From Haliea sp. (GTDB taxonomy: Bacteria; Pseudomonadota; Gammaproteobacteria; Pseudomonadales; Halieaceae), in contig JAVJWR010000033.1 of the NCBI GenBank assembly GCA_040221975.1, positions 498,082 to 522,081 of the forward strand: a DNA stretch of 24,000 nt, given 5' to 3'. Shown here piece by piece: positions 4,228 to 24,000 of the stretch. Below the pieces are notes generated by a model. That model searched no databases. It was not told where the DNA came from and saw only the letters and a list, made by a program, of their open reading frames with translations. How positions within the stretch are numbered: position 1 is the first letter of the stretch; each line of letters opens with the position of its first letter. A program made the translations under genes and the position numbers.

Positions 4228-4236
4228 GTCACCACC

Positions 4237-4521: not shown

Positions 4522-4532
4522 TATTGTGTCTC

Positions 4533-5501: not shown

Positions 5502-5525
5502 AACCGCTCTCCTGTAAACCTGCCG

Positions 5526-6728: not shown

Positions 6729-7174
6729 TAGTCAATTTCTCCGGTTCCAGTCTCGACAAGGTGACCGCCAATGCGGTGGGAGTTACCCCGAAACAAGGCA
6801 ATGGTCTGTTGCGCCTGGTTGGTCACGGTAACATCGTAGACGCCACTGCGCCTGCCCTGCTGCACCTGGCTCGCACTTGCGGTCAGTTCCTCGCCCAGCC
6901 GGGCCGGGGCCAGGAATTCGATGCGAGCACCCGCGGCTACGGTGTTGAAGTTTTCGCTGTTGCAGGCATAGGCAAAGCAGCTGTCCGCCAGGGTAAAGAT
7001 AAGGCCGCCGTGGCAGAGATCGTGACCGTTGACCATGTCGGCCCGCACGCGCATGGTCATGGTAGCGGTGCCCGGTGCAATCGCCACCAGGGTCACCCCC
7101 AGCGCCCTGCAGGCGTGGTCACCCACCCAGAGGGCCTCACCACAGTCACGGGCCAGTTGTTCCGGGCTACTCAC
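6728..7174 (-). CDS. paaI: Hydroxyphenylacetyl-CoA thioesterase (hotdog fold)
   Basis: 148 aa. The PaaI-type motif is [23 protein letters not shown]. The start is GTG at 7174, sharing 1 nt with the paaG stop (TAGTG). The gene lies inside the paa operon. Confidence 0.88.
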
Positions 7175-7965
7175 TATTCACCCCGATACTGTGGCGGACG
7201 TTTTTCCAGGAACGCGGCGACACCTTCACGGTAATCCGCGGTCTGGCCCGCGGCCCGCATCAATTCCTTTTCCAGTTCGAGCTGCTGGTCAAGCGTGTTG
7301 GCTGCCGAGGCCGCGAACGCCTGCTTGGTAAAGGCGAACCCGCGTGTGGGCTGGGTGGCCATGGTCTCAGCCAGTGCCAGTGCGGTCGCCTGCAATTCAT
7401 CATCCTCGACCACCTGCCAGATCATGCCCCAGGCCAGGGCCTGCTCCGCGGATACCTTGGGCCCCAGCATGGCGAGCCCCTTGGCCCGGGCCATGCCGAC
7501 CAGGCGGGGCAGGGTCCAGGTACCGCCTGAGTCCGGAATCAGGCCCAATTTGGCGAAGGACTCGATGAAACTGGCAGACTGCCCCGCAATGACGATGTCG
7601 CAGGCCAGGGCGATATTGGCGCCAGCTCCGGCCGCCACCCCGTTTACGGCACAGATCACCGGCTTCTCCATGCCGGCGAGCAGGCGGATCAGCGGATTGT
7701 AGTACTTTTCCACCGAGTCACCCAGGTCCGGCGGCGCATCGCCCGCGGACACGGCGCGGTCGTTGAGATCCTGGCCGGCGCAGAAGCCGCGGCCAGCGCC
7801 GGTCAGCAATACCGCCCGCACCTGGGGATCCCCGGCGGCACGGGTCAGTACTTCCCGCACCTCCGCGTGCATCGCCGCGGTAAAGCTGTTGAGCGCTGCG
7901 GGCCGGTTCAACACCAGCCGTGCCACGCCCTTGTCAATAGTGAACTCGATATGTTCCCAGGCCAT
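7174..7965 (-). CDS. paaG: 1,2-epoxyphenylacetyl-CoA isomerase (crotonase family)
   Basis: 263 aa with long identity runs to E. coli PaaG as I recall it (LLTGAGRGFCAGQDLNDR, KPVICAVNGVAAGAGA, GMIWQVV.D, ADYREGV.AFL.KR.PQ). The start is ATG at 7965, with GAGGAGGG overlapping the paaZ stop. Confidence 0.93.
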   Translation of the reverse strand: MAWEHIEFTIDKGVARLVLNRPAALNSFTAAMHAEVREVLTRAAGDPQVRAVLLTGAGRGFCAGQDLNDRAVSAGDAPPDLGDSVEKYYNPLIRLLAGMEKPVICAVNGVAAGAGANIALACDIVIAGQSASFIESFAKLGLIPDSGGTWTLPRLVGMARAKGLAMLGPKVSAEQALAWGMIWQVVEDDELQATALALAETMATQPTRGFAFTKQAFAASAANTLDQQLELEKELMRAAGQTADYREGVAAFLEKRPPQYRGE

Positions 7966-7980
7966 GAGCAGCTGCCCTCC

Positions 7981-10023: not shown

Positions 10024-10092
10024 GAAGCGCGTCTCCTGTATTATGCGTTGTGGGATTTACCCGCCCCGGGCCAGCGCCCGAGGCCGCCAATT

Positions 10093-10120
10093 ATGATACA
10101 CAATGATTACCTTCTGTAAA
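10093..10120 (-). promoter_or_regulatory. Candidate sigma70 promoter of the paaZGIJABCDE operon (TTTACA-N16-TATCAT)
   Basis: Read on the minus strand as cTTTACAgaaggtaatcattgtgTATCATaat, about 70 nt upstream of the paaZ ATG. The -10 is embedded in the 8-mer TGTATCAT that recurs in other control regions of this window. Confidence 0.35.
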
Positions 10121-10272
10121 GCTTTATGTAATACTTTGGAGCCACTATCGCTCGCTTCGAATCCTGTCGCAAACTACTGCACAACCCAGCCTTGTTTGCC
10201 ATAATGTGGCGCCAAAGGCATCCGCACCCACGGCCCATGGCAAACAATAATTACTCCGGTGGAGCTTTCCCC

Positions 10273-11730
10273 ATGCGTAGACCACTTCAGTTTTTGGCAT
10301 CCCTCATTTTGCCCTTGGCGATGACGAGTCACACCCTCCCGGCTTATGGGGGGGATATCGCCAGGCAACTTGGAGCATTACGAGCCGGAACCCTGTCCAG
10401 TGAAGAGCTGGTGATGCGCAGCTTCACCCTGCATGAGCGCTACCGGGAGCATAATATTTTCATCAATCTGCCTCAGCAGGCAGTCTTGCAAGAGGCCAGA
10501 GAAAGGGACCGGGAGCGTACACAGGGTCGATTGCGCGGACCATTGCATGGCATCCCTCTGGTGGTAAAAGACAATATTCATGTCGCAGGCATGCCGAATA
10601 CCGCCGGGACGGAGGCGTTGCGGGCATTTGTGCCGGAACAGGACGCCGATGTGGTAGCGCGACTACGTGCCGCGGGCGCGATTATTCTCGGCAAGACGAA
10701 CATGCATGAGCTGGCCTATGGAATAACCAGCGACAATCGGGCCTATGGTGCGGTCGGCAATGCTGTCGACCCGAAATATTTTGCAGGCGGTTCCAGCGGT
10801 GGAACCGCCGTGGCCGTAGCCCTTGATCTTGCTGCGGCCGGGCTAGGTACCGATACCGGGGGCTCCAGCCGTATTCCCGCGGCTCTCAATGGTATTGTCG
10901 GGTTCAGGCCGACAACGGGACGCTACCCCAATGCCGGGCTCGTCATGATTTCCCGGACACGGGATACAGTCGGACCCATGGCGAAATCAGTGGAGGATAT
11001 CATCGTCCTCGATCAGGTATTGGCAGAAAAATCCTACACCCGGTCACCCGTAACCATTGACACCTTGCGCATCGGTGTGCCGCGCGACTACTTCTACACC
11101 GATCTCGACCCTGCTGTTGCGCGGCGTATGGCCCGGATCCTGCAGGCACTTGCCGATGCCGGTGTCACGCTTGTTGAAGAACCACTGCCAATGCTGGCCG
11201 ACCTCAATGAAAAAATCGGTTTCCCGCTGGTTATCCACGAGACCAAGAAGCTATTGGTGGACTATCTGGCCGAAAATCTGCCAGAGCTGTCGCTCTCTGA
11301 ACTGGTGGCGGAAATCCGCAGTCCCGACGTACAGGCCGTCATGGATATGGTGGTGTCCGGGACGATTTCGGAAGCCACCTATCGTGCCGCCCGGGACATT
11401 TATCGACCCGCTCTGCAACAGGTATATCGTGACTACTTTCTGCAAACGGGAGTAGATGCCATACTGTTTCCCACCGTCCCCTTGCCTGCGAGGCCGATAG
11501 CCGGAAGCATGGAATCAGTGACCTTGAACGGGACACAGGTTCCCACCTTCCCCACCTATATTCGCAATACCGACCCCGCCAGTAATGCGGGCATTCCCGG
11601 GTTGACGCTTCCGGCGGGAACCTCTGAACAGGGACTGCCGCTGGGCATCGAACTCGATGGCCCCGAGCGCAGCGATGAACGCCTGCTGGCTATCGGGCTG
11701 GCTCTGGAACGGTTTCTGGCCAACATGTAG
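10273..11730 (+). CDS. Amidase-signature (AS) family amidase with N-terminal export signal
   Basis: AS motifs are VVKDNI (catalytic Lys region), GGSSGGTAVAVA (cis-Ser) and GTDTGGSSRIPAA (Ser nucleophile). The track start is TTG at 10192. I prefer ATG at 10273 (GGTGGAG, 8 nt spacing), which gives MRRPLQFLASLILPLAMTSHTLPAYG, a signal-peptide-like N-terminus. ATG at 10237 is an alternative that would give a longer, Tat-like RR leader. Confidence 0.85.
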   Translation: MRRPLQFLASLILPLAMTSHTLPAYGGDIARQLGALRAGTLSSEELVMRSFTLHERYREHNIFINLPQQAVLQEARERDRERTQGRLRGPLHGIPLVVKDNIHVAGMPNTAGTEALRAFVPEQDADVVARLRAAGAIILGKTNMHELAYGITSDNRAYGAVGNAVDPKYFAGGSSGGTAVAVALDLAAAGLGTDTGGSSRIPAALNGIVGFRPTTGRYPNAGLVMISRTRDTVGPMAKSVEDIIVLDQVLAEKSYTRSPVTIDTLRIGVPRDYFYTDLDPAVARRMARILQALADAGVTLVEEPLPMLADLNEKIGFPLVIHETKKLLVDYLAENLPELSLSELVAEIRSPDVQAVMDMVVSGTISEATYRAARDIYRPALQQVYRDYFLQTGVDAILFPTVPLPARPIAGSMESVTLNGTQVPTFPTYIRNTDPASNAGIPGLTLPAGTSEQGLPLGIELDGPERSDERLLAIGLALERFLANM

Positions 11731-11876
11731 TTGCCGGGGGGATGCGGGTGCACGCACACCTGGATCATTGCGTGACCAAACTGCATGGGGATCCCTTCTC
11801 GCCTGTTCCAGCGGGAATAAACCCCACCAACGACTGCTAAACGGCTGTCGCTGGCGGGTTGCTCAGGGAAAGCCTG

Positions 11877-14156
11877 TCAGAGATTCCAGTTGACGCTGAC
11901 GCCATAGGTACGCGGAGCTCCCCAGACACCGATCACTCCAGGCCCGATAACATAAGAGTGAGAAACATATTCCTCATCGGTCAGGTTCTGACCCCACAGG
12001 GCCACCTCCCACTCAGCATCGTTGGAAATCCAGGCAATTCGAGCGTCGAGCAGATCCTGCTGATCAATGCGGGTTCGCTGGTCGATATAGTCATTGATCT
12101 GTTCGTCCGTGTGGGAAAATGCCAGTCGAAACTCCAGCTCACCCGATTGCACAGGTTGAACGTATTCTGCAACGAGGTTGTAAGATGTTTCGGGTGCCTG
12201 GCGCAGTTCGGAGCCGGAGGCATCGAAGGGGCCGCTGGTCAGTGTCAATACGAGATCTTTGACTTCGGTATCCAGGTAAGCGTAGTTTCCGGAAAAGCGC
12301 AGTTTTTCCGTCACAAACCAGGTCCACTCCAACTCCAGGCCAAGAATTTCTGCAGTGCCAATGTTGGTTGTCTGGAAGGTGCCGAAATCCGGGTTGACTG
12401 AAGAAGGACCAAAGCGGACGATCTGCAAATCTTCGTAATCGGTGTAGAAACCGGTGGCATTCAGGCGCAATGACCGGTCGAGAAACTCGCCTTTGAAACC
12501 GAGCTCATAGTTGAGCGCCTCTTCCGGCTCTACCGGCTGAGTGGCGTCGGCCTCTATGCCCTGAGAGCCGGCGAAACCTCCACTTTTAAAGCCCTTGGAG
12601 ATGGTGGCAAATGCCATGAGATCATCATTGGGGAAGTACTGCAGCGACAGCATCGGTGAAAAATCGCTCCAGTCGTTATCGGTTTCTACCCGAAATGCCT
12701 CCGCAATAATGTTCAGGCTGCCAGCCACTCCCTGACATGCGGGGAAGCCCTCGAATGGCGTGCCCTCTGTACTGCCATCGGCTACCAGGTCGCAGTTGAC
12801 CGCAGTCGCCGCATAATCCTTGTCATCAAGCGTATAGCGGCCGCCAAAAGTCAGGTTCCAGCGCTCGGCAAAGCGCCAGTTTGCCTGCCCGTAAACAGCA
12901 TAACTCGTGGTTTCATTTTCCGTCCGGGTGTATTCGTTCCCGACCGTCGTCTGGCCTGTGGCAACACTGTTGCGGTCCAGCTTGAACTCCTCCACCCGAT
13001 CGGTATCTTCAAGGAAGAAGTAACCGCCTATCGTGTAGTCGAAAGTATCGGAGAGACTTGAGGTCCAGCGCAACTCCTGGGAAAACGTTTCTATGTCCTC
13101 AACGATGTCATCATTGACATCAACTCCAAAGACGTCATCGAAAGGATCGTCTGGGTCACCAAAATCAAAACCACCTCCCGCAGGCGCCCCGATCGAAGGC
13201 ATCTCCCAGTCCGCTTCCGCGGTGCGAAAAGCCGTAATCGTGGTGAGGGTGCCGTTTCCGATTCCGATGTCACCCTGCAGGCTGATTCCGCTTGCTTCCC
13301 TGTCCGAGAAGCCCTCTATCGGTGCCGCCGACTTGTGAACGCCCCCGCCCAGCTGGTCCAACACGCTGAGATAATCGAAATTGCCATTGGCAATTGGGGT
13401 GCGCCCCATATCCTTCCGTTCGTCCTGCATGGCATCTGCTGAAAGCAGCCATTCCGACGACGCCAGCGATAACAGCAATTGAGCGCGAACAGAGGTCTGA
13501 TCCTGATCCTGAGTTTCGTTACCAAGCAACACGTTTCTTCCAAAACCATCGTGCTGCCTGTGGTTCAAGACGATTTTACCGGCGAGACTATCCGTCAATC
13601 CGCCGCTGAGGTAGCCCTGGTAGCGTTGGATTCCTTCGTTACCCACAGTAACTCCCAATTTGGCACTCAGTTCATCTGTGGGCTTGCTGGAAACGACATT
13701 GATTGCACCACCGATGGAGTTGCGGCCAAACAGCGTTCCCTGTGGACCCCTCAGCACCTCGATGCGTTCCATATCGAACATGTCGAAGTTCACGGCGGCG
13801 AGTCGCCCGATATAGACACCGTCTAGGAAGATAGCGGTTGAATTGTCAAGGCCCGCACCATCGTCCACTGAACTGATGCCACGTACCGAGATGATGGCCT
13901 GGCCCGGAGAAAACTCGGCGTAAGCCATGCCCGGTACATTCTTGGCGATGCCATTGGCATCAAAGATGTCGGCCTTTTTCAGTTGCTCTGACCCCATGGC
14001 TGTTATCGAGATAGGGACGTCCTGGATATCCTGTTCCCGGTGCTGGGCGGTAACCGTGACTTCTTCAAGTACGCCGGCAGTGGCCGTAGTGATGCTACCG
14101 GCAATACCAGACAGTGCAAGGCCGCATATGGCCCTGGAGAGGATCGATTTCTGCAT
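11877..14156 (-). CDS. TonB-dependent outer-membrane receptor
   Basis: 759 aa. It has the signal peptide MQKSILSRAICGLALSGIAGSITTATA, the TonB-box/plug start LEEVTVTAQ and the plug motif IEVLRGPQGTLFGRNSIGGAINVVS. A long beta-barrel region follows, ending in YGVSVNWNL. The start is ATG at 14156 with AAGGAAAAGG upstream. There is no N-terminal signalling extension. Confidence 0.9.
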   Translation of the reverse strand: MQKSILSRAICGLALSGIAGSITTATAGVLEEVTVTAQHREQDIQDVPISITAMGSEQLKKADIFDANGIAKNVPGMAYAEFSPGQAIISVRGISSVDDGAGLDNSTAIFLDGVYIGRLAAVNFDMFDMERIEVLRGPQGTLFGRNSIGGAINVVSSKPTDELSAKLGVTVGNEGIQRYQGYLSGGLTDSLAGKIVLNHRQHDGFGRNVLLGNETQDQDQTSVRAQLLLSLASSEWLLSADAMQDERKDMGRTPIANGNFDYLSVLDQLGGGVHKSAAPIEGFSDREASGISLQGDIGIGNGTLTTITAFRTAEADWEMPSIGAPAGGGFDFGDPDDPFDDVFGVDVNDDIVEDIETFSQELRWTSSLSDTFDYTIGGYFFLEDTDRVEEFKLDRNSVATGQTTVGNEYTRTENETTSYAVYGQANWRFAERWNLTFGGRYTLDDKDYAATAVNCDLVADGSTEGTPFEGFPACQGVAGSLNIIAEAFRVETDNDWSDFSPMLSLQYFPNDDLMAFATISKGFKSGGFAGSQGIEADATQPVEPEEALNYELGFKGEFLDRSLRLNATGFYTDYEDLQIVRFGPSSVNPDFGTFQTTNIGTAEILGLELEWTWFVTEKLRFSGNYAYLDTEVKDLVLTLTSGPFDASGSELRQAPETSYNLVAEYVQPVQSGELEFRLAFSHTDEQINDYIDQRTRIDQQDLLDARIAWISNDAEWEVALWGQNLTDEEYVSHSYVIGPGVIGVWGAPRTYGVSVNWNL

Positions 14157-14259
14157 GACACCTTTTCCTTTAAATTATTAAAATGACAGGTCGATTTCCC
14201 GTTGGGATGAGCAACTGTACTCGACAACCACAATTCCCACACAATAATTAAGGCTTAAT

Positions 14260-14287
14260 ATGATACAGAAATCAATACCTCTGGAAA
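14260..14287 (-). promoter_or_regulatory. Candidate sigma70 promoter of the TonB-dependent receptor gene (TTTCCA-N16-TATCAT)
   Basis: Read on the minus strand as aTTTCCAgaggtattgatttctgTATCATatt, about 100 nt upstream of the receptor ATG. Its architecture and sequence resemble the putative paaZ promoter. Confidence 0.3.
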
Positions 14288-14455
14288 TAATAAGTAATGT
14301 TTAGTGCAGAGGGGGTAGATATAAAATGGGACTTGGGTATATTTGACGCTCGCCACCTTGCTCAGGGGCGACACGCCGACACACCCATTCACAAACGGCA
14401 TTCGTCGCTGCAATGTCGGCAACAGCACTGCGCAGACATTTCAGGTTTAAAGTTA

Positions 14456-14486
14456 TTGACAGGCGCTCGGGCTGAATTGATATAGT
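14456..14486 (+). promoter_or_regulatory. Candidate sigma70 promoter for the DUF485-symporter(-pac-fadB-like?) transcription unit
   Basis: A perfect -35 TTGACA sits at 14456-14461. It is followed by GATATA at 17-nt spacing or TATAGT at 19-nt spacing. The site lies about 50 nt upstream of ATG 14535 in an AT-rich 378-bp intergenic region. Confidence 0.4.
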
Positions 14487-14534
14487 TATAAGCTCAAAGA
14501 TTACAGCCAGATGATAATAATCAAGGGATGTTCG

Positions 14535-14795
14535 ATGAATCACGATCAGAAACTGGCAGTAATCAAGGCCCGTACACGGCGCCGGATGCTATTCACTTTC
14601 GTAACACTTTTGCTCTATTTCGCGTTCATTTTGAACTGGACTGGTTTTGGCAGCATGTTGGCCCAGCGCTTGGGGGGATCACATATCACCGGGTCTCTAC
14701 TGATGTTCTGCTGCCTTATCGTGTTGTTTATCCTGCTGGAACTTCTTTTCCTGTTGCTGAACCGGGCGACCACCCGCTCTGGCGAGAACCTTTAG
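14535..14795 (+). CDS. DUF485 (YjcH-like) small two-TM membrane protein
   Basis: 86 aa from ATG at 14535 (AAGGGA 6 nt upstream); the track start at 14511 lacks an RBS. It has two hydrophobic helices and lies immediately upstream of an ActP-type symporter, with a 1-nt gap (TAGAATG), the canonical yjcH-actP arrangement. Confidence 0.75.
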   Translation: MNHDQKLAVIKARTRRRMLFTFVTLLLYFAFILNWTGFGSMLAQRLGGSHITGSLLMFCCLIVLFILLELLFLLLNRATTRSGENL

Positions 14796-14796
14796 A

Positions 14797-16398
14797 ATGA
14801 TTCCTTCTGGAAGCATTGCCCTGCAACCGCTGGACCCCCTGGCCATCAGCATGTTCCTGGTATTTGTCGGGGCTACCTTGCTGGTTAGTTACTGGGCATC
14901 CCGTCGCACCAAGAGTAGTTCCGACTTCTATACGGCAGGTGGCCAGTTGACGGGGCTACAGAATGGAACCGCCATCGCCGGCGACTTCATGTCGGCTGCC
15001 TCGTTCCTGGGTATTACCGGACTGGTGTTCCTGGGTGGCTTTGATGGCCTGGTTCTGGCCCTGGGTGCTTTTGCCGCCTGGCCGCTGCTGCTGTTTCTAC
15101 TGGCACGCCGTGTGCGGAACCTTGGTAGCTTCACGTTTGTCGATGTCGTGTCACAGCGTCTTGATCGGACCAGAATCCGCGTGGTTGCTGCCAGCGCAAC
15201 CATCGTCGTGGTTGTTCTTTATCTGATCGCCCAAATGGTGGGCGCAGGAAAGCTGATTGAGCTGCTTTTTGGCCTGCCGTACGAAGTCGCGGTTGTCGTG
15301 ATCAGTGGCTTGGTGTTGGCATATGTCACTTTTGGCGGCATGTTGGCTACCACATGGGTACAGATTATCAAAGCTATACTACTAATGACAGGTGTAACCA
15401 TAACTGCGGTTCTAGTCATGGCCATGAGCGGTTTCAGTTTTGAAACGCTGCTGGCGACGGCGGTGAGCAACCATCCCCGGGGCGAAGGAATTCTGGCGCC
15501 GGGGGTATTGTTCGACGACCCAGTACAGGTCACGACGATTCTCGTCTCCATGCTGTTTGGCACCCTTGGCTTACCTCATATTCTGATGCGCCTGTTTACT
15601 GTGCCAGACATGCATGAGGCGAAAAAGTCGGCATTTTACGCATCGTTGTTCATGGGCTACTTTTATCTGGCGCTGGTGATCATAGGTTTTGGCGCAGTCG
15701 CTTATCTGTATGGGGACCCGGAATTTTTCACCGAAGAAGGTGGCTTGATCGGCGGCAGTAATATGGCAGCGATTCACCTTTCCACTGCGGTGGGTGGCAA
15801 GTTGTTAACCGGCTTCATGTCGGCTGTGACATTTGCCACAATTCTCGCCGTGGTAGCTGGCCTGACAGTCTCGGGGGCCGCGGCCATTTCCCATGATCTC
15901 TATGCACAGGTGATCTGCAAAGGCGCGCCTGAACCGCGCAGAGAGCTGATGCTAACCCGGTTTACTACGATTGTGATCGGCGTCATAGCAATTGTTCTGG
16001 GCATTCTTTTCCAAAATGAAAATGTCGCGTTCATCGCCACCATGCCCATGGTAGTTGCCGCTTCGGTGAATTTTCCGATCCTGTTTCTGTCGCTCTACTG
16101 GTCTCAACTTACAACCCGGGGGGCAATTGCAGGTGCGTTGGTCGGCTTATTTTCTTCAGTATCGCTGATTGTGGTGGGTCCCCAGGTATGGGTATCAGTA
16201 CTGGGCTTCAAAGAAGCATTGTTTCCATACGATTATCCGGCATTGTTCACCCTGCCACTTGCGGTCGTCACCATGGCCGTGGTGTCTTACCTGGATGCCT
16301 CTGAAAGAGGGAAAATAGATCGACAGAAGTTCCACGATCTACTGGTGCGTTCAGAGTTTGGTGAACGAGACCAGCCTGTGCAGGTCGCACCACACTGA
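14797..16398 (+). CDS. Sodium:solute symporter family, ActP-like monocarboxylate permease (candidate phenylacetate importer)
   Basis: 533 aa multi-TM protein. The N-terminal region AISMFL.FV..TL...YWAS.R...S.D.YTAGG..TG.QNG.AIAGD.MSAASFLGI..LVF..G.DGL resembles E. coli ActP as I recall it. It is translationally coupled to the DUF485 gene. Confidence 0.88.
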   Translation: MIPSGSIALQPLDPLAISMFLVFVGATLLVSYWASRRTKSSSDFYTAGGQLTGLQNGTAIAGDFMSAASFLGITGLVFLGGFDGLVLALGAFAAWPLLLFLLARRVRNLGSFTFVDVVSQRLDRTRIRVVAASATIVVVVLYLIAQMVGAGKLIELLFGLPYEVAVVVISGLVLAYVTFGGMLATTWVQIIKAILLMTGVTITAVLVMAMSGFSFETLLATAVSNHPRGEGILAPGVLFDDPVQVTTILVSMLFGTLGLPHILMRLFTVPDMHEAKKSAFYASLFMGYFYLALVIIGFGAVAYLYGDPEFFTEEGGLIGGSNMAAIHLSTAVGGKLLTGFMSAVTFATILAVVAGLTVSGAAAISHDLYAQVICKGAPEPRRELMLTRFTTIVIGVIAIVLGILFQNENVAFIATMPMVVAASVNFPILFLSLYWSQLTTRGAIAGALVGLFSSVSLIVVGPQVWVSVLGFKEALFPYDYPALFTLPLAVVTMAVVSYLDASERGKIDRQKFHDLLVRSEFGERDQPVQVAPH

Positions 16399-16602
16399 TG
16401 GCGACACCTGACTACCACACCGCTCAGGCGGAGGCATGTTTGATGCATCTCGCTTGAATCGCTTTATGGTGCTTTCCAGGTCATGAAGGTAGTCTTTATT
16501 TGCCCCTGAAGCCTCGTGCGCACAACTTTATCGGTTCAATGCGGTTGCTGATGCCTCGTCACTCACTCAACCTGGCCAGAACCCCGAAACGAGAGGAATG
16601 CC

Positions 16603-19080
16603 ATGCTGAAAAAATACCGCTTCAATCCCGGAAAAGCTGTATTGACAGTATCGCTGCCATTGATTGGCGCCTTGCTGACAGGTCAGATCGCCAGCATGAA
16701 TTCGGCACATGCGGATTCCGGTCAAATAGTCGAGATTATTCGCGACACCTATGGAGTTCCCCATATTTTTGCCGATACAACCTATTCACTGTTTTTCGGC
16801 TATGGATATGCCATCGCTCAGGACCGTCTATTCCAACTGGAGATGACCCGGCGCAGCACTCAGGGACGGGTCGCGGAGGTGTTGGGCGAAGCCTACCTGG
16901 ACTTTGATATAGGTATCCGTCAGCACTATTCCCCCGACAACATTCGGATGCAAATGGCTAGACTGCCGCAGGAGGATCTGGATATTCTCAAGGGCTATGC
17001 CGACGGTATCAATCACTGGCTACAGTGCATAAAGAACGATCCAGGCCAGCGGATGCCAAAGCAGTTTATTGATTATCAAATCACTCCCCAGCCCTGGAGC
17101 TCGTTCGATGTTGCCATGGTATTTATCGGCTCCATGATCAATCGCTTCGGCGATTACAACACTGAACTGCAAAACCAGCAGCTACTCGAGCAACTCACAG
17201 AGCGACATGGCAAGGAAGCTGGGCTGTCCCTGTTTAACACCTTGGTCAACTTCTATGATGCCGATGCTCCTACCACCATACCCAAAGGTGCGTGGGATAC
17301 ACGCCTGCGCAGTGACGCCTTTTCCAAACTGAGCACTGACAAGAGCCCCATCAGCAAAAGCTCAGCGAAGCTGTTGGCGGGACTGGAAGGTACATTACAG
17401 CTGCCGAATGTACAGGAGCACCCGTTCAGCAACGTGTTCTTGCTGGGTGCCGCGAAGAGTCGCGATGCGCAAGCAATCCTGGTCAACGGGCCTCAGTTCG
17501 GCTTCTACCAACCCGCCTATACCTACTCGGTTGGTCTGCACGGCGCGGGATTCAATGCCGTGGGAAACAGCCCGTTCGGTTACCCGATGGTTCAGTTTGG
17601 TTACAATGAACATATCACCTGGGGAAGCACCTGGGCCGCGACCGACAATGTTGACATTTTCCAGCTGCAGCTCAATCCGGACAATCCAGCCGAGTACCTG
17701 CATCAGGGGAGATACCACCCCTTGCAGCGCAAGCTGGAAACCATCCATGTCAAAGGAGCAGATAGCCACGATCTTGTGATCTATCGTTCACACTATGGCG
17801 CCATTGTGGACTACCGTCCTGAAGAACATGTTGCCTATGCCAAGACCCGTGGCTGGGAGGGCGAGGAAATCAATACCCTGATGGCCTGGAACAAGCTTGG
17901 CAAAGCCCGCAACCACCAGCAATGGCTGGATCGTGTACAACCATCCGCCATCAACGTGAACTGGTACTATGCCGACGCTAAAGGAAATATCGGCTACGTG
18001 ATGGGTGGCCGCTATCCGCAACGGGCAGCCGGTCATGATGGGCGCACTCCTGTACCGGGAACAGGTGAGTATGACTGGCAGGGATTCATGCCTTTTGACA
18101 CCAATCCACAGATTTTCAACCCATCTACAGGCTACATCGCCAACTGGAACCAGCGCCCGGCCGAAGGGGTTCCCAATCCGGATATGTGGTGGTATGCCTG
18201 GCACGAGGCTGACCGGATCTCTTCCCTATCTTCGCGCCTGGAAGCTCGAGAAAAAATGACAGCGGAAGAGGCGTGGGATCTGATGATGGAGGTATCCTTC
18301 GAAGATCCCAATGCACGTTTCTATGTGCCACGCCTGATTCGGGCGCTCGAGACCACCGAACAATCGCCCATGAGACAAGCTCGAGACATTCTGGCCAGCT
18401 GGAATTATCTGGATCTCGATGACGACAGGAATGGGTATTATGATCACCCTGCGACAGCCATTTTCCGTCACTGGCAATATCAGTTGATCGAGTTGATACT
18501 GAAGGACTACCTCCCTGAAGAATTTGTATCCTGGTTCATCAGTACCGGTCATCCACAACCCGGAGAAGGGTCGTCCAGCCATAATCTCTCGGTGGCCGGG
18601 AAAGTAATCCATCGGATGCTGGCAAAGCATGACAAGGGAGAAGTTCTTGACTTTGACCTTTTGCAGGGACGTGATCCGGATGATCTGATGCGTGAGGCAA
18701 TGGCGCGTACACTTGCACAGCTGAGCGAAGATCAAGGTACCGATATGGCAAGCTGGCATCACCCAGTTTCCCATACCATTTATTCCTACAAGAACTTCCT
18801 CCAGATACCTCAGGCAGGCGAGGATGAAACAATGCTCAATCATCTTGCGATGAATCGTGGCACGGAAAACAACATGACCGTTTTCTCAGCGGATGGAGTC
18901 ATCGGTTACGAGGTGGCGGGCCCCGGCCAATCCGGCTTCATTGCAGCGGATGGAACCCGCTCTCCACATTATGACGATCAGCTGGAGCTTTTTGGGAAGC
19001 TCGACAAGAAACGCACCTGGTTGAACCGCAGTGATATCGAACAGGCGGCCCGGTCCCGCATCCAACTGCAACTGAAGTAG
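16603..19080 (+). CDS. pac: Penicillin G acylase (Ntn-hydrolase, penicillin amidase family) precursor
   Basis: 825 aa. It has a Sec-like signal peptide ending in SAHA. Long collinear matches to E. coli PGA as I recall it include HIFADTTYSLFFGYGYAIAQDRLFQLEMTRRSTQGRVAEVLG, FDVAMVFIGSMINRF, the autoprocessing site and beta-Ser1 nucleophile F|SNVFLLG (Ser codon 17428-17430), ILVNGPQFG, INWYYAD..GNIGY, GYIANWN and NRGTEN...GPGQSGF. GAGAGGAA precedes the ATG. Confidence 0.93.
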   Translation: MLKKYRFNPGKAVLTVSLPLIGALLTGQIASMNSAHADSGQIVEIIRDTYGVPHIFADTTYSLFFGYGYAIAQDRLFQLEMTRRSTQGRVAEVLGEAYLDFDIGIRQHYSPDNIRMQMARLPQEDLDILKGYADGINHWLQCIKNDPGQRMPKQFIDYQITPQPWSSFDVAMVFIGSMINRFGDYNTELQNQQLLEQLTERHGKEAGLSLFNTLVNFYDADAPTTIPKGAWDTRLRSDAFSKLSTDKSPISKSSAKLLAGLEGTLQLPNVQEHPFSNVFLLGAAKSRDAQAILVNGPQFGFYQPAYTYSVGLHGAGFNAVGNSPFGYPMVQFGYNEHITWGSTWAATDNVDIFQLQLNPDNPAEYLHQGRYHPLQRKLETIHVKGADSHDLVIYRSHYGAIVDYRPEEHVAYAKTRGWEGEEINTLMAWNKLGKARNHQQWLDRVQPSAINVNWYYADAKGNIGYVMGGRYPQRAAGHDGRTPVPGTGEYDWQGFMPFDTNPQIFNPSTGYIANWNQRPAEGVPNPDMWWYAWHEADRISSLSSRLEAREKMTAEEAWDLMMEVSFEDPNARFYVPRLIRALETTEQSPMRQARDILASWNYLDLDDDRNGYYDHPATAIFRHWQYQLIELILKDYLPEEFVSWFISTGHPQPGEGSSSHNLSVAGKVIHRMLAKHDKGEVLDFDLLQGRDPDDLMREAMARTLAQLSEDQGTDMASWHHPVSHTIYSYKNFLQIPQAGEDETMLNHLAMNRGTENNMTVFSADGVIGYEVAGPGQSGFIAADGTRSPHYDDQLELFGKLDKKRTWLNRSDIEQAARSRIQLQLK

Positions 19081-19164
19081 CCCCCAGTCATTCGAAGTGC
19101 GAAAAGCTGGAGTTTAGGATCAACCCATCTGTTGCAACAGTACATTGAATTCGTGGGAGAACAC

Positions 19165-21264
19165 ATGAACGATACCGCAGTAAAGTACGAGCTTAGTCGC
19201 AGCCTGGGCATCATCCGCATCGATAACCCGCCGGTGAATGCATTGTCACACAAGGTGCGCGCGGGCATCATGCAATCACTGGAGCAGGCCCGCACCGACG
19301 ACAGTCAACTGCTGCTGATTCTCTGCGCAGGCAGGACCTTTATCGCGGGCGCCGACATTACCGAGTTCGGCAAGCCGCCCCAAGCGCCCAGCCTGCCCGA
19401 TGTCATCATCGCCCTGGAAAATTTCTCCAAACCGGTGGCAGTGGCTCTGCACGGCACCGCCCTGGGTGGCGGCCTAGAGCTGGCGATGGCCTGCCACTAC
19501 CGCGCAGCCCTCCCCGGCACCCGGCTGGGGCTGCCGGAAGTCAAGCTGGGTCTCCTGCCCGGTGCCGGCGGCACCCAGCGCCTGCCGCGGCTGGTCGGCC
19601 CCGAGCTGGCGCTGGAGATGATCAGCGGCGGCGCGCCGATCAGCGCCAAAAAGGCCCTGGAGTCGGGCCTGGTTGACCAGATTCTGGACGGCGAACTGGA
19701 GCCCGCGGCAATCCGCTGGGCACAAACCCTGCTGGCGGAATCAGCGCCGGTGCGGCCCACGGGCGAGCGCCCTGTCCCCACACCTGCCCAGGCCGATTTT
19801 CTGGACCGCCATTTACAAAAAACCGCGCGCAAACACCGCGGCCAGCCGGCGCCGGGCTATATCGCCGAACTGGTGAAACTGTCGCTGAGCGCCAGCCTGG
19901 AAGACGGTCTCAAGCGCGAGCGGGAATGCTTCCTGGCCTGCAAGGCCTCGCCACAGTCCGCGGCCCTGCGCCACGTATTCTTTGCCGAGCGCGCGACCGG
20001 CAAGCTGCCCGACATCCCGGCGGACACCCCCCTGCGCCCGACCCGGCGCGTGGCGGTGATCGGTGCCGGCACCATGGGCGGCGGGATCGCCATGTGTTTT
20101 GCCAGCGCGGGCATTCCCGTCACCCTGGTGGAAACAACCCGGGAGTACCTGGACAAGGGGCTGGAAAAAATTCGCCAGAACTACGCCAATTCAGTGAAGC
20201 GCGGTCGCTTCACGGCCGAGGCGGTGGCGGGCTGGCTGGACAACATACAGGGTACGCTGGATTACGACGACCTCGCGGATGTGGACCTGGTGATCGAGGC
20301 GGTCTTCGAAAACATGGCGGTAAAGCAGGAGGTATTCGGCAAGCTTGACGCGGCCTGCAAGCCGGGCTGCATCCTCGCAACCAACACCTCCTATCTCGAC
20401 GTCAACGCCATTGCCGCCGCCACCAGCCGCCCCGCGGACGTTATCGGCGCGCACTTTTTCAGTCCCGCCAATGTCATGAAACTGCTGGAGGTCGTGCGCG
20501 CGGAAAAAACCGCGCCCGATGTGGTGCAGACGTTCATGAAGCTGGCTCGCACCATCGGCAAGATACCGGTCGCGGTGGGGGTCTGCCATGGCTTTGTCGG
20601 CAACCGCATGCTGCGGGCCTATGCGCGGCAGGCGCAGCTGCTGCTGCTGGAAGGTGCGACGCCGACACAGATTGATCAGGCCATGGAAAACTGGGGCATG
20701 GCCATGGGCCCGCTGGCGGTTGGCGACCTTGCCGGACTCGACATCGGCTACCGCTCGCGCCGCGACCAGGGCATCGAGTCGCGCTCGGTGCTGGAGTCCG
20801 CACTGGCGGACACCCTGGTGGAGATGGACCGCCTGGGGCAAAAGTCCGGCGCCGGCTATTACCGCTACGACCCCGACACCCGGGCCCGCCAGGCCGACCC
20901 GGAAGTCGAACAGCTGCTGCGTGACATCGCAGCCGAGTGGCAAGTGCCGCAGCGGGAAATCGGCGAAGAAGAGATTGTCGACCGGCTGATTCTCGCCCTG
21001 GTCAATGAGGGCGCCGCCATTCTCCAGGAGGGCATCGCGGCGCGGCCCAGCGATGTCGATATTGTCTATATCAACGGCTACGGCTTCCCCAGCTGGCGCG
21101 GTGGACCCATGTTCCATGCCGACAGCCTCGGACTGGACGCCGTGATTGCCCGGCTGCGGGAATTGCGCGAACTCACCGGGGACGAGAGTTGGGAGCCGGC
21201 GCCGCTGCTGCAGGAACTGGCGGTCGCGGGCGACAGCCTGGGCTCGCTCAACAGCCGCGGCTGA
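19165..21264 (+). CDS. Fused enoyl-CoA hydratase (N-terminal crotonase) / 3-hydroxyacyl-CoA dehydrogenase (C-terminal), FadB/FadJ-like
   Basis: The track start is TTG at 19132. ATG at 19165 has GGGAGA upstream and gives 699 aa. The crotonase part carries NPPVNAL, FIAGADITEFG and HGTALGGGLELAMACH. The dehydrogenase part carries the Rossmann motif VAVIGAGTMGGGIA and the HADH region HFFSPANVMKLLEV. Confidence 0.9.
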   Translation: MNDTAVKYELSRSLGIIRIDNPPVNALSHKVRAGIMQSLEQARTDDSQLLLILCAGRTFIAGADITEFGKPPQAPSLPDVIIALENFSKPVAVALHGTALGGGLELAMACHYRAALPGTRLGLPEVKLGLLPGAGGTQRLPRLVGPELALEMISGGAPISAKKALESGLVDQILDGELEPAAIRWAQTLLAESAPVRPTGERPVPTPAQADFLDRHLQKTARKHRGQPAPGYIAELVKLSLSASLEDGLKRERECFLACKASPQSAALRHVFFAERATGKLPDIPADTPLRPTRRVAVIGAGTMGGGIAMCFASAGIPVTLVETTREYLDKGLEKIRQNYANSVKRGRFTAEAVAGWLDNIQGTLDYDDLADVDLVIEAVFENMAVKQEVFGKLDAACKPGCILATNTSYLDVNAIAAATSRPADVIGAHFFSPANVMKLLEVVRAEKTAPDVVQTFMKLARTIGKIPVAVGVCHGFVGNRMLRAYARQAQLLLLEGATPTQIDQAMENWGMAMGPLAVGDLAGLDIGYRSRRDQGIESRSVLESALADTLVEMDRLGQKSGAGYYRYDPDTRARQADPEVEQLLRDIAAEWQVPQREIGEEEIVDRLILALVNEGAAILQEGIAARPSDVDIVYINGYGFPSWRGGPMFHADSLGLDAVIARLRELRELTGDESWEPAPLLQELAVAGDSLGSLNSRG

Positions 21265-21272
21265 GCCCCGGA

Positions 21273-21292
21273 GCGCCGCGCATCAGCGGCGC
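21273..21292. terminator. GC-rich hairpin between convergent fadB-like and paaK genes (GCGCCGC-gcatca-GCGGCGC)
   Basis: A perfect 7-bp stem with a 6-nt loop. The loop contains the paaK stop codon (complement of 21283-21285), and the 3' arm is followed by TTGT on the plus strand. The U-tract is weak, so function as an intrinsic terminator is uncertain. Confidence 0.3.
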
Positions 21293-22581
21293 TTGTCGAA
21301 TACGCGCTTGGCCTTGCCCTCGGAGCGGGGAATCACGCCGGGGGCATGCGGCTTCACTGCGGTGGATATCCCGATCATGGACTTGATGCGATGCTGCAGG
21401 GCCTGGGCCGCGCGCTGCATGTCACTCGCGGAGGATTCGCTGGCCATTTCCACGTGCACTTCCATCGCGTCCAGATGCCCATCCTTGGTGACTTCGATAA
21501 AGTAGTGCGGCGCAAGGCCTTCCACCGCCAGCAGCTGCTCCTCGATCTGGGTCGGGAACACGTTGACGCCGCGGATGATCAGCATGTCATCGCTGCGCCC
21601 GGTGATCCTGGCCATGCGACGCATGGTGCGGGCGGTACCGGGCAACAGGCGCGTAAGGTCCCGGGTGCGATAACGGATGACCGGCATGGCTTCCTTGGTC
21701 AGGCTGGTGAACACCAGTTCCCCCTCCTCGCCGTCCGGCAGCACTTCACCGGTATCGGGGTTGATGATTTCGGGGTAGAAATGATCCTCCCAGATGGTCG
21801 GCCCATCCTTGCTTTCCAGGCACTCCTGGGCGACGCCGGGACCCATTACCTCGGAGAGGCCATAAATATCCACCGCATCGAGGTTGAGCCGCTGCTCCAT
21901 CTCCCGGCGCATGGCATCAGTCCAGGGCTCGGCGCCGAAAATGCCCGCGCGCAGTGACAACTTGCGGGTATCCACATTCTGCCGATCCATCTCGTCGGCG
22001 ATATTCATCATGTAACTGGGCGTGACCATGATGATGTCCGGATCGAAATCGACAATCAGCTGGACCTGCTTCTCGGTCTGGCCACCGGACATCGGTATGA
22101 CGGTGCAGCCGAGCCGCTCGGCGCCGTAGTGAGCACCGAGCCCGCCGGTGAACAGGCCATAGCCGTAAGACACGTGAACCTTGTCGGCGGCACGACCGCC
22201 GGCGGCACGAATGGAACGGGCCACTACGTCCGCCCACACATCGATATCGCCCTGGGTATAGCCTACGACCGTCGGCTTGCCGGTGGTCCCGCTGGAAGCG
22301 TGAACGCGCACCACCTTGTCCATGGGTACGGCGAACATGCCGAACGGATAATTGTCGCGCAGGTCGCTCTTGCTGGTAAAAGGAAATTTCGCCAGATCTT
22401 CCAGTGCCTGCAGGTCGTCGGGATGAACACCGTGCTCGTCGAACTTCGCCCGGTACACCGGGGAGTGCTCGTAGGCGTGCTGGAGCGACTGGCGCAGGCG
22501 CTGCAGCTGCAGGCTGCGCAGCTCGTCGAGACTCGCTTTTTCAATGGGATGCAGTGGATCGAGACAGGGACTTTGACTCAT
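21283..22581 (-). CDS. paaK: Phenylacetate-CoA ligase
   Basis: The track start is GTG at 22605. ATG at 22581 (GGAG upstream) gives 432 aa starting MSQSPCLDPLHPIEKASLDELRSLQLQRL..., matching the E. coli PaaK N-terminus as I recall it. The AMP-binding motif SSGTTGKPTVV is present. Confidence 0.93.
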   Translation of the reverse strand: MSQSPCLDPLHPIEKASLDELRSLQLQRLRQSLQHAYEHSPVYRAKFDEHGVHPDDLQALEDLAKFPFTSKSDLRDNYPFGMFAVPMDKVVRVHASSGTTGKPTVVGYTQGDIDVWADVVARSIRAAGGRAADKVHVSYGYGLFTGGLGAHYGAERLGCTVIPMSGGQTEKQVQLIVDFDPDIIMVTPSYMMNIADEMDRQNVDTRKLSLRAGIFGAEPWTDAMRREMEQRLNLDAVDIYGLSEVMGPGVAQECLESKDGPTIWEDHFYPEIINPDTGEVLPDGEEGELVFTSLTKEAMPVIRYRTRDLTRLLPGTARTMRRMARITGRSDDMLIIRGVNVFPTQIEEQLLAVEGLAPHYFIEVTKDGHLDAMEVHVEMASESSASDMQRAAQALQHRIKSMIGISTAVKPHAPGVIPRSEGKAKRVFDKRR

Positions 22582-22625
22582 GGGGACTCCGTGGTGGCAG
22601 GTCACGCGGATTATTGTGGCCGCAA

Positions 22626-22668
22626 ATATAATACGTATTTGGCTGCCTCATCAATATTTATGTATCAT
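22626..22668. promoter_or_regulatory. Overlapping divergent candidate promoters for paaK (minus: TTGATG-N17-TTATAT) and paaX (plus: TTGGCT-N18-TATCAT)
   Basis: On the minus strand the -35 is the complement of 22649-22654 and the -10 the complement of 22626-22631. On the plus strand the -35 is 22639-22644 and the -10 is 22663-22668. The paaK -35 therefore lies inside the paaX spacer. Confidence 0.3.
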
Positions 22669-22778
22669 TTTTGTCCGCGTGCCGGTGCTGGGTTATCCGC
22701 GACAGGCGCTGTATCATGCCGCCTCCGGCTGCCGGGTCTGGGCGGCCGGTTCCGCAATTGAAGCTGAGAGGTAGACCC

Positions 22779-23708
22779 GTGGCACATCCGCCGGCCGTCA
22801 GGCGCCTGCTGGACACGTTCAGGACTCGCAAACCGATGCGCAGCACGTCGCTGATCATCACCCTGTTTGGCGATACCGTATCCCAGCACGGGCACACCCT
22901 CTGGCTGGGAAGCCTGGTGCATGCGCTGGCGCCTCTGGGCGTGAACGAGCGGCTGGTGCGGACTTCCGTGTTTCGCCTGGTCAGGGAGGGCTGGCTGGAG
23001 GCCGAGCGGGTCGGGCGTCGCAGCTATTATCGCTTCACTGCCCATGGCAACGCCGAGTATGAACGTGCCGCCCGGCGCATTTACGCGACCGAGGACACCA
23101 GCTGGGAGGGACACTGGCAAATCCTCATTCCCCTTGCCATTGCCGAATCCGATCGCGACGATTTTCGCCGCAGCCTTAACTGGCAGGGTTTCCGCGCGAT
23201 AGCGCCCGGCACCCTGGCCAAGCCCGGCAGCCCGGGCCAGGCCCTGCGGGAAACCCTCGAGGAATTCGACGCCAGTGACAAGGTGCTGCTGTTCGACGCC
23301 ACCAGTTCCACCCTGGGCTCGGCCAGGCGCCTGCGACAACTGGTCCACGAAAGCTGGCAACTCGACGCCACCGCGGCAGCCTACCGTGCTTTCCTGGACA
23401 ACTTCAGGCCCCTGCAACGCTGGGTGTCGCGACAACGGCAACTGGAACCCGAAGCGGCTTTCATCGTGCGTACCTTGCTGATTCACGACTTTCGCCGGGT
23501 CCTGCTGCACGACACCCCGCTGCCGGAGGAACTGTTGCCGCCCGGCTGGCCCGGCGCCGAAGCCCTGGCCCTCACCGGCAGCTTGTATCAGGAGCTGGCC
23601 GCGGCTTCCACCGTATACATCACCGACAACCTGGAGGGCGGGAACGGACCCTTGCCCGCGGCTGGCGCCAGCTTCAGCGCCCGCTTCCCCAACCTCAGGC
23701 GCGGCTGA
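22779..23708 (+). CDS. paaX: Phenylacetyl-CoA-responsive transcriptional repressor PaaX
   Basis: The N-terminal winged-helix region LLDTF...TSLIITLFGD...LWLGSL...ERLVRTSVFRL..EGWLE..R.GRRSYY resembles E. coli PaaX as I recall it. The start is uncertain. The track uses TTG at 22671. I prefer GTG at 22779 (GAGAGG 7 nt upstream; 309 aa, near the E. coli length). ATG at 22716 or 22836 are alternatives. Confidence 0.85.
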   Translation: MAHPPAVRRLLDTFRTRKPMRSTSLIITLFGDTVSQHGHTLWLGSLVHALAPLGVNERLVRTSVFRLVREGWLEAERVGRRSYYRFTAHGNAEYERAARRIYATEDTSWEGHWQILIPLAIAESDRDDFRRSLNWQGFRAIAPGTLAKPGSPGQALRETLEEFDASDKVLLFDATSSTLGSARRLRQLVHESWQLDATAAAYRAFLDNFRPLQRWVSRQRQLEPEAAFIVRTLLIHDFRRVLLHDTPLPEELLPPGWPGAEALALTGSLYQELAAASTVYITDNLEGGNGPLPAAGASFSARFPNLRRG

Positions 23709-23710
23709 GC

Positions 23711-23738
23711 CAAATCGCTCACAGAGTGAGCTTCTACA
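23711..23738. repeat. REP-like repeat copy 1 (CAAATCGCTCACAGAGTGAGCTTCTACA), containing hairpin GCTCAC-aga-GTGAGC directly after the paaX stop
   Basis: It matches copy 2 at 23 of 28 positions. It is followed by GTAGGAGCGCAGtccCTGCGCGATCG (hairpin 23753-23767), which resembles REP-type extragenic palindromes of Pseudomonas-like genomes. Confidence 0.5.
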
Positions 23739-23836
23739 ATGGCCGGGTAGGAGCGCAGTCCCTGCGCGATCGCCCGCAGACAAGGTGAATGGCCGTGCAG
23801 CGGACAGAGAAGGTGGCCTGGGCCAGCGGGCTCCCA

Positions 23837-23864
23837 CAAATCGCTCACGGGGTGGGTTTCCACA
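23837..23864. repeat. REP-like repeat copy 2 (CAAATCGCTCACGGGGTGGGTTTCCACA)
   Basis: A direct repeat of copy 1, 126 bp downstream. The adjacent minus-strand sequence reads GTGGGAGCCCGCTGGCC, the inverted counterpart of the GTAGGAGCGCAG element after copy 1. It overlaps the stop of the partial minus-strand CDS. Confidence 0.5.
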
Positions 23865-24000
23865 GGGGTGCCAGCAACCGGCGCTTGCCATCGTGACTGA
23901 GAGCGATACCGGGCTCATCCAGATCCTTGCGGTCCCAGAGTTCGCAGGTGACCTGCTTGTGTTTCTGGTCCAGGCCCTCGCAGTAATTGCTGTAGCGGCA
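23845..24000 (-). CDS. 3' end of an unidentified CDS continuing beyond the window (Cys-containing C-terminus ...CRYSNYCEGLDQKHKQVTCELWDRKDLDEPGIALSHDGKRRLLAPLWKPTP*)
   Basis: The frame is open from 24000 down to TGA (complement of 23845-23847), with GC-rich third positions like neighbouring genes. It is absent from the ORF track because no start codon lies inside the window. No family was recognised. Confidence 0.4.
   Translation of the reverse strand, partial: CRYSNYCEGLDQKHKQVTCELWDRKDLDEPGIALSHDGKRRLLAPLWKPTP

Follow-up and report, generated by a model that had tools for sequence, protein, structure and literature searches.

The window analysed here is a 24,000-nucleotide stretch of the genome of Haliea sp. 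(contig JAVJWR010000033.1), which contains the genes of the phenylacetate degradation pathway (paa) and, among them, an open reading frame (ORF) for a protein of the penicillin G acylase (PGA) family. This gene, hereafter pac, and its product, Pac, lie on a 9-kb block that is absent from the paa cluster of a congener, and PGA genes recur beside paa genes in other lineages. The paa cluster of the window is the only one in the genome. The gene and the parts of its precursor are as follows.

16603-19080, plus strand: pac, precursor of a PGA-family N-terminal nucleophile (Ntn) hydrolase of 825 residues (PF01804, PGAs of the Protein Data Bank (PDB), alignment to E. coli PGA, fold of the model)
16603-16713, plus strand: predicted Sec-type signal peptide, residues 1-37, ...SAHA/DSGQ (translation, alignment to the E. 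coli signal/alpha boundary)
16714-17283, plus strand: alpha-subunit region, residues 38-227 (PGA alpha chains align at E 1e-62 to 1e-65; column conservation among homologues)
17284-17427, plus strand: divergent spacer (pro-peptide), about residues 228-275, with approximate boundaries (unaligned with the E. coli spacer, low model confidence)
17428-19077, plus strand: beta-subunit, residues 276-825 (beta chains of E. coli and P. rettgeri, aligned gap-free over beta1-307; site tables)

The pac frame opens with ATG and closes with TAG. The profile PF01804 (Penicil_amidase) matches the product at E 2.1e-142, with residues 43-813 placed on profile positions 2-674 of 675. The best solved relatives are all PGAs, namely single-chain variants of the Kluyvera enzyme (E 1e-201) and the beta chains of P. 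rettgeri (1e-150) and E. coli (1e-141), and the PGA matches in the PDB span E 1e-201 to 1e-120. The wild-type E. coli pac gene, which is annotated 'penicillin G acylase' and lies close to hpa genes (L034:5905-8445), was used as the reference. As the sequence-only reading had proposed, Pac is collinear with the E. coli precursor: BLASTP aligns residues 31-825 at 39% identity, and the spacer, which that reading had called divergent, is the only large part that finds no alignment.

The AlphaFold2 model of Pac has a mean predicted local distance difference test score (pLDDT) of 83.9 and a predicted template-modelling score of 0.85. Its superposition on PGA beta chains gives target-normalised template-modelling (TM) scores of 0.93-0.95 at a root-mean-square deviation (rmsd) of 1.9-2.2 Å, whereas PvdQ, MacQ and the glutaryl acylases together give 0.66-0.74 at 7-11 Å (PvdQ and MacQ, 0.66-0.69 at 7-11 Å; cephalosporin/glutaryl-7-aminocephalosporanic acid (glutaryl-7-ACA) acylases, 0.70-0.74 at 7-8.7 Å). 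In sequence, the structures of acylases for N-acyl-homoserine lactones (AHLs) and of cephalosporin acylases reach only E 1e-13 to 1e-20 (PvdQ and MacQ, 1e-15 to 1e-19), and the PvdQ equivalog model NF051460 scores 87.9 bits, below its cut-off of 950. By its sequence and its modelled fold, Pac is a genuine relative of PGA type and not of AHL- or cephalosporin-acylase type. The designation of Pac as a PGA orthologue therefore stands as regards the family and the fold, which are observed, and has to be narrowed as regards descent: because the identity is only 39% and Pac carries Trp69 and Ala71 of the beta chain, it is assigned to a distinct PGA clade, without a solved structure, and not regarded as a strict orthologue of E. 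coli pac.

Six other PF01804 paralogues are encoded in the genome, on contigs C27, C6, C15, C29 (two genes) and C33 (loci L002 and L004-L008). They were considered as PGA-type duplicates and rejected, since they share only 22-26% identity with Pac over the longest aligned segments, which leaves Pac as the sole PGA-type paralogue. A metagenome scan with the Pac protein gave two short loci only.

These comparisons bear on a quorum-quenching role, in which Pac would act on short or aryl acyl-homoserine lactones, and its position among the paa genes would either serve to dispose of arylacetate or be incidental. The PGA of Kluyvera citrophila cleaves C6-C8 (3-oxo) AHLs (review PMC5474475), a PGA-like pocket makes a similar side activity plausible, and the six paralogues point to a wider use of the family in this genome. 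We judge such a role unlikely, in view of the low PvdQ score and a fold far closer to PGA than to PvdQ or MacQ. PGA genes that repeatedly occur together with paa genes, an amidase and a carboxylate importer fit nutrient scavenging instead, and no luxI/luxR-type genes are found in the window.

The N-terminus of Pac (MLKKYRF...SAHA|DSGQ) reads by eye as a Sec-type signal with neither a twin-arginine motif nor a lipobox cysteine, and mature Pac is therefore probably soluble in the periplasm. The cleavage site is placed by alignment and is a predicted position; the model has a pLDDT below 50 at residues 1-38, and again at residues 244-269 of the spacer. Numbering is gap-free over beta1-307 against the E. 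coli and P. rettgeri chains, so that a Pac residue number equals the beta number plus 275. The nucleophile that the sequence-only reading had placed in F|SNVFLLG is confirmed: Ser276 (AGC, 17428-17430) aligns with beta-Ser1 of the E. coli, P. rettgeri and Kluyvera PGAs. All catalytic residues are kept, namely beta-Ser1, beta-Asn241 (Asn516), beta-Arg263 (Arg538) and alpha-Arg145 (Arg181); the three beta residues are invariant in 120 of 120 homologues and alpha-Arg145 is present in 119 of them, the remaining one having a gap. The calcium ligands alpha-Glu152, beta-Asp73, beta-Asp76 and beta-Asp252 are also kept.

From the E. coli PGA structures, we take the phenylacetyl pocket to consist of alpha-Met142, alpha-Phe146, beta-Pro22, beta-Phe24, beta-Phe57, beta-Ser67, beta-Trp154 and beta-Ile177. 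The first seven are identical in Pac, and the sole change is the conservative replacement of beta-Ile177 by valine. The alignment bears out the pocket residues named from the sequence alone: SMINRF (17131-17148) aligns with TMANRF of E. coli, by which alpha-Met142, Arg145 and Phe146 are kept, and VNGPQF (17482-17499) is the segment of beta-Pro22, Gln23 and Phe24. The same alignment served as a check for a pocket of the AHL- or cephalosporin-acylase type and gave one of PGA type.

On the leaving-group side, Trp69-Ala70-Ala71 of Pac are encoded at 17632-17640. Since the combination W69/A71, together with Y256, is common to 105 of the 120 closest homologues and to all environmental relatives in the tree, it is taken as a clade trait; the classical enterobacterial PGAs carry A69/F71/F256. 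In E. coli PGA, beta-Phe71 touches the beta-lactam nucleus, and the exchange of this residue for alanine may for this reason alter the leaving-group preference of Pac.

The latter exchange is one of the points on which a main role in penicillin G detoxification or catabolism can be weighed. The PGA family is defined by penicillin G cleavage, and soil isolates degrade penicillin with the help of a beta-lactamase and an amidase in addition to the paa pathway (Crofts et al. 2018, as summarised in PMC11446756). Neither the block nor the window, however, contains a beta-lactamase gene, the residue that would contact the beta-lactam nucleus is alanine in Pac, and modules like the present one are widespread in marine Gammaproteobacteria, where benzylpenicillin would not be expected. 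A penicillin role is considered improbable.

The genes surrounding pac are listed below.

134-1810: membrane-bound pyrroloquinoline quinone (PQQ)-dependent dehydrogenase (glucose/quinate/shikimate family, with a score under the cut-off), cut by the start of the window
1815-10023, minus strand: paaEDCBA, paaJ, paaI, paaG and paaZ
10273-11730, plus strand: exported amidase-signature enzyme, indoleacetamide-hydrolase-like (NF005688, 585.7 bits against a cut-off of 532; PF01425)
11877-14156, minus strand: TonB-dependent receptor (plug and barrel domains)
14535-14795, plus strand: DUF485 gene (PF04341, E 3e-5, under the gathering score)
14797-16398, plus strand: ActP-like sodium:solute symporter gene (PF00474, E 4.5e-98; NF006903, 734 bits)
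16399-16602: gap of 204 bp between the symporter gene and pac, containing CTCGCTTGAATC at 16449-16460
19165-21264, plus strand: FadB/J-like fusion of enoyl-CoA hydratase and 3-hydroxyacyl-CoA dehydrogenase (domains)
21283-22605, minus strand: paaK, phenylacetate-CoA ligase (TIGR02155, 744 bits against a cut-off of 646)
about 22779-23708, plus strand: paaX repressor gene, with an uncertain start codon and an open frame from 22671 (TIGR02277, 294.2 bits against a cut-off of 264.55)

The N-terminal sequence of the amidase, MRRPLQFLASLILPLAMTSHTLPAYG, resembles a signal peptide, which suggests a periplasmic amidase-signature enzyme. The DUF485/symporter pair is a candidate phenylacetate importer. 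The start codon of the FadB/J-like gene, at 19165, follows the pac stop by exactly 84 bp, the distance given by the sequence-only reading for a downstream beta-oxidation gene. No dedicated PaaH exceeds the cut-off in the genome, the best PaaH-like match being the FadB/J-like fusion itself; the fusion is the sole candidate for both the PaaF and the PaaH steps, for which it would replace separate genes, and it is kept in paa clusters at 70-72% identity in the same family and 51-52% in another family. The paaK gene is the only copy above the TIGR02155 cut-off in the genome. The PaaX product has the N, M and C domains (PF07848, PF20803 and PF08223). An overlapping 417-residue ORF on the minus strand (22665-23918) has no family match and was rejected in favour of paaX; in all probability, it is the shadow ORF of a gene rich in GC. 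The PQQ-dependent dehydrogenase gene (134-1810) abuts paaE, and the same adjacency is found in the congener. An Rfam scan of 9900-19300 gave only a spurious sub-threshold match (28.9 bits for Giardia U2, where the gathering score is 100).

The five genes from the amidase gene to pac differ from the surrounding paa genes in composition and form one block.

10137-19155: low-GC block of 9,019 bp with the amidase, receptor, DUF485, symporter and pac genes (GC content at third codon positions (GC3), comparison with the congener)

The GC3 values are 0.48-0.63 for the block genes and 0.68-0.81 for the paa genes on both flanks (0.73-0.81 without paaB). The congener (G060) is 94-95% identical in nucleotides to positions 5-10136 and 19156-24000 of the window, and only about 40 bp separate its two flanks; the region 10137-19155 is therefore absent from it. 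In addition, no PGA-type orthologue is found in the congener at E <= 1e-150. The insertion is an observed difference, and the block is read as horizontally acquired, which makes the embedding of pac in the paa cluster a recent one.

The comparison also indicates what the insertion did to its neighbours. In the congener and the same-family genomes, a FadB-like gene is divergent from paaZ and has one bipartite box 49 nt before its ATG. The block entered directly after this PaaX-like box between paaZ and the FadB-like gene, so that the amidase gene now sits behind the old promoter and the FadB-like gene behind pac. The insertion thus separated the FadB-like gene from its PaaX-box promoter. No sigma-70-like promoter or terminator is predicted in either of the gaps that flank pac (204 bp before it, 84 bp after it), and the simplest reading is therefore that pac is co-transcribed with the DUF485 and symporter genes upstream and the FadB-like gene downstream, as is probably the case. 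As a separate observation, the 12-13-nt sequence CTCGCTT[C]GAATC has only two copies in the genome (4.47 Mb), at 10151-10163 and 16449-16460, in the same orientation, 122 nt before the amidase ATG and 154 nt before the pac ATG. It may be a binding site for a common regulator, or a trace left behind as the block was put together in steps.

The E. coli PaaX operator has the form TGATTC-N27-GAATCA (review PMC9493321). The exact E. coli type of site (TGATTC-N20-34-GAATCA) gave 0 matches, and loose scans with two mismatches were dropped because they returned mainly coding-region noise. The 8-mer ATGATACA, by comparison, has 21 copies in 4.47 Mb, four of which lie in the three divergent control regions of the window. 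The bipartite form ATGATACA-N25-28-GTAWT (TGATAC-N27/28-GTAWTR) occurs three times genome-wide, always in the paa cluster, a count that is partly post hoc.

10094-10133, plus strand: PaaX-like box 1, TGATAC-N28-GTAATA, upstream of paaZ and now also of the amidase gene
14261-14299, plus strand: PaaX-like box 2, TGATAC-N27-GTAATG, inside the block, between the receptor gene and the DUF485-symporter-pac-fadBJ genes
22629-22667, minus strand: PaaX-like box 3, TGATAC-N27-GTATTA, between paaK and paaX

The architecture of these boxes is that of the E. coli operator. Box 1 is kept in the congener and in same-family genomes, and the same bipartite element stands before paaZ and before paaK/paaX in four other genomes of the family. 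A relaxed genome-wide search gave no convincing PaaX-like site outside the paa cluster. Within the coding region of pac, a near-palindromic TGATAC-N26-GTATCC was found at 18494-18531; the genome has only two sites, this one included, that deviate from an ideal TGATAC/GTATCA pair by no more than one mismatch. The 82%-identical gene of Nitrincola lacks the two half-sites, and the element could be due to chance or be an internal operator ahead of fadBJ.

The neighbourhood of pac was compared with 34 other PGA-gene contexts; the genomes are akin, and the counts are descriptive and not statistical. The paa genes adjoin 17 of the 34 contexts, spread over four PGA clades and at least ten lineages. 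A homologous TonB receptor is paired with the PGA gene in 19 contexts and an amidase in 14, and further contexts are paired with a TRAP or SSS importer. Among the 14 closest-relative loci, six stand beside paa genes (Vreelandella aquamarina, Zobellella maritima, two Oceanisphaera, a metagenome-assembled genome and Photobacterium). In Zobellella, Oceanisphaera and Photobacterium (L011-L013, L032), the pac homologue directly follows a TRAP (DctPQM) importer beside paa genes, an arrangement that parallels the symporter and acylase of the window. In the two Oceanisphaera loci (L012 and L013), the acylase N-terminus has a lipobox-like LxGC.

Genomes of the same family and of the same order were also sampled. 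A PGA-type gene was found in 8 of 60 same-family genomes, with an adjoining homologous TonB receptor in all eight, an amidase in six and a position within the paa cluster in four, where the order is paaX-paaK-receptor-PGA-amidase-fadBJ-paaZ. At the order level, nine of 400 genomes have such a gene (receptor, 8/9; amidase, 7/9; beside paa genes, 6/9). Viewed from the receptor, its two closest homologues (80% and 75%) and 16 more are each followed by a PGA-family gene; one of the two closest loci also has an amidase (65%), and the other abuts paaEDCBA-J-I-G. Amidase homologues flank receptor-acylase pairs in many genomes. At one locus (L053, G059:C291), the acylase-homologue open frame has 1,324 residues, far above the others, a length that could be explained by a fusion, by an extension at the upstream end or by an error of assembly.

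In the maximum-likelihood tree, Pac and the Nitrincola protein (support 100/100) fall within a Halomonas/Pseudomonas/Serratia clade, and the acylases that usually accompany the receptor and amidase of the window form a separate deep clade beyond E. coli PGA. The acylases of the modules matching the window's receptor (80%) and amidase (65%) are only 34-36% identical to Pac. Because Pac is so far in the tree from the usual partners of the receptor and amidase, the module of the window is interpreted as carrying a xenologous PGA that was swapped for the usual acylase. Between Pac and these acylases, beta-Pro22, Phe24, Phe57, Ser67, Trp154 and Ile/Val177 are kept, and alpha142, alpha146 and beta71 vary. 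That two clades of 34-36% identity with the same core pocket fill the same slot speaks for the general PGA reaction on an arylacetyl amide as the function that the module requires.

The foreign composition of the block and its absence from the congener also speak for a passenger islet, which would have been acquired horizontally and have landed between paa genes by chance; Pac would then act on some other acylated substrate of the TonB receptor, such as an acylated siderophore, as PvdQ does. The best NCBIfam match of the receptor, a siderophore-receptor subfamily below the cut-off, and the closest pac relatives, which are without paa linkage, point in the same direction. Against this stand the receptor-acylase-amidase modules, which many independent lineages have within or next to the paa cluster in many arrangements, the PaaX-like box inside the block, the aromatic PGA pocket of Pac and the absence of siderophore biosynthesis genes nearby. 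A passenger islet is accordingly regarded as quite improbable. With the aromatic pocket, the missing beta-lactamase gene and the recurrent paa linkage, all three alternatives considered so far (quorum quenching, a penicillin role and a passenger islet) are less consistent than the reading that follows.

Pac is best explained as a secreted PGA-type hydrolase of an acquired envelope module that frees phenylacetate for the paa pathway, to which we give a probability of roughly 0.7. In this mechanism, the TonB-dependent receptor would take a phenylacetyl conjugate across the outer membrane. In the periplasm, Pac, after processing itself, would use beta-Ser1 to attack N-phenylacetyl conjugates, or closely similar arylacetyl ones, at the amide bond, by which phenylacetate would be set free. 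The exported amidase would probably release phenylacetate as well, possibly from primary amides such as phenylacetamide. The DUF485/ActP-like symporter would then bring phenylacetate into the cell, where PaaK would convert it into phenylacetyl-CoA, the substrate entering the paa pathway. As the inducer, phenylacetyl-CoA is expected to free PaaX from its boxes. The catalytic and pocket residues and the recurrent linkage of pac are observed; the substrates, the periplasmic maturation, the co-transcription and the control of pac by PaaX are inferred. The scavenger role for phenylacetyl compounds is supported by comparative genomics, and the recurrent linkage of PGA genes to paa genes and carboxylate importers is its strongest support here. 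The proposal of the sequence-only reading that the native role is to feed phenylacetate into catabolism gains from the same linkage.

Several observations weigh against this mechanism. Pac differs from every solved PGA at beta56 (Gln; Val in E. coli), beta69 (Trp; Ala) and beta71 (Ala; Phe), and the confidence of the model is low at residues 297-302, the segment with beta-Phe24. The nearest relative of Pac, from Nitrincola alkalilacustris (82%), is not linked to paa genes and has no TonB receptor near it, several relatives of 55-60% identity are near neither, and the relatives in Pseudomonas, Serratia, Halomonas icarae, Marinobacterium and Providencia are likewise without paa linkage. Box 2 lies about 235 bp before the start of the DUF485 gene and is closer to the receptor gene. 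Finally, no PaaX-like box is present in the 204 bp before pac (16399-16602), and for this reason PaaX control of pac can be derived only through co-transcription. As regards the PaaX regulon, in which the sequence-only reading had placed pac, the cluster encodes PaaX and has three PaaX-like boxes, none of them directly before pac; membership of pac in the regulon is plausible.

Among known systems, the PGAs of E. coli W, Kluyvera and P. rettgeri (pac/pga; S45; EC 3.5.1.11) share with Pac the signal-alpha-spacer-beta precursor, the serine nucleophile, Asn241, Arg263, alpha-Arg145, the calcium site and most pocket residues, at an rmsd of 2.0 Å. E. coli PGA differs from Pac in sequence (39% identity), the clade of Pac having Trp at beta69, Ala at beta71 and Tyr at beta256, to which Pac adds Gln at beta56, and in the signal, which by sequence reading looks to be of the Sec type in Pac rather than of the twin-arginine type. 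The position of the gene differs as well: the E. coli pac gene is unlinked to paa, as the sequence-only reading had stated, and lies near hpa genes, whereas in the window pac is part of the paa cluster and has receptor, amidase and symporter genes as neighbours. PaaX represses E. coli pac, whose presumed function is to scavenge amides and esters with a phenylacetyl group (PMC9493321).

The modules of other marine Gammaproteobacteria (L038-L053, L055, L056) have the same three families beside the same pathway genes, with receptors 53-80% and amidases 48-65% identical to those of the window. They differ from the window in the acylase, which comes from other PGA clades (34-47% identical) and mostly stands behind the receptor gene in the same orientation, and in the symporter, which they mostly lack; the version in the window is rearranged. 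PvdQ/QuiP/HacB, MacQ and the glutaryl-7-ACA acylases share the Ntn superfamily, the Pfam family and the autoproteolytic serine nucleophile with Pac, but are far less alike in sequence and fold. In the put operons of soil Pseudomonas and Burkholderia (Crofts et al. 2018, as summarised in PMC11446756), an amide hydrolase frees phenylacetate for the paa pathway, as is proposed here. The put operons combine a beta-lactamase and a major facilitator superfamily importer with amidases and lie apart from the paa operon, whereas the window has no beta-lactamase and couples predicted periplasmic hydrolases to a TonB receptor. The 'PEN' region of A. baumannii AYE was considered as a prior case of pac-paa linkage and rejected, since PEN and PAA are separate regions.

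Neither the PGA family nor the scavenger hypothesis is new (Merino 1992, Galan 2004; cited in PMC2265553 and PMC9493321). In the literature searched, no description of a receptor-PGA-amidase module in paa clusters was found. A broader reading, to which we give slightly less than even odds, is that PGAs are the periplasmic hydrolase of a conserved mobile module of TonB receptor, PGA and exported amidase, with or without a carboxylate importer, which plugs into paa clusters and captures specific phenylacetyl conjugates, and in which the PGA clades are exchangeable. Such conjugates would be bulkier or less abundant than free phenylacetate; phenylacetyl-amino acids of the auxin type, of algal or plant origin, would be an example. 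The window would then represent an exchange of the PGA clade together with a datable insertion that put an essential pathway gene behind pac.

PGA is among the most used industrial enzymes, and its natural role and substrate have been deduced mainly from PaaX regulation in E. coli W. In the window, pac is physically tied to phenylacetate catabolism, with a carboxylate importer on one side and, on the other, a pathway gene parted from its promoter; a TonB-dependent receptor and an exported amidase are also close by, and the receptor hints at a defined imported substrate. The recurrent design makes the scavenger hypothesis testable, for which Haliea sp. and its congener form a natural pair with and without the 9-kb block. 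The clade with beta-Trp69 and beta-Ala71 may offer another leaving-group preference that is useful in biocatalysis. If the broader module reading is true, the natural substrate class and the ecological role of PGAs would be identified.

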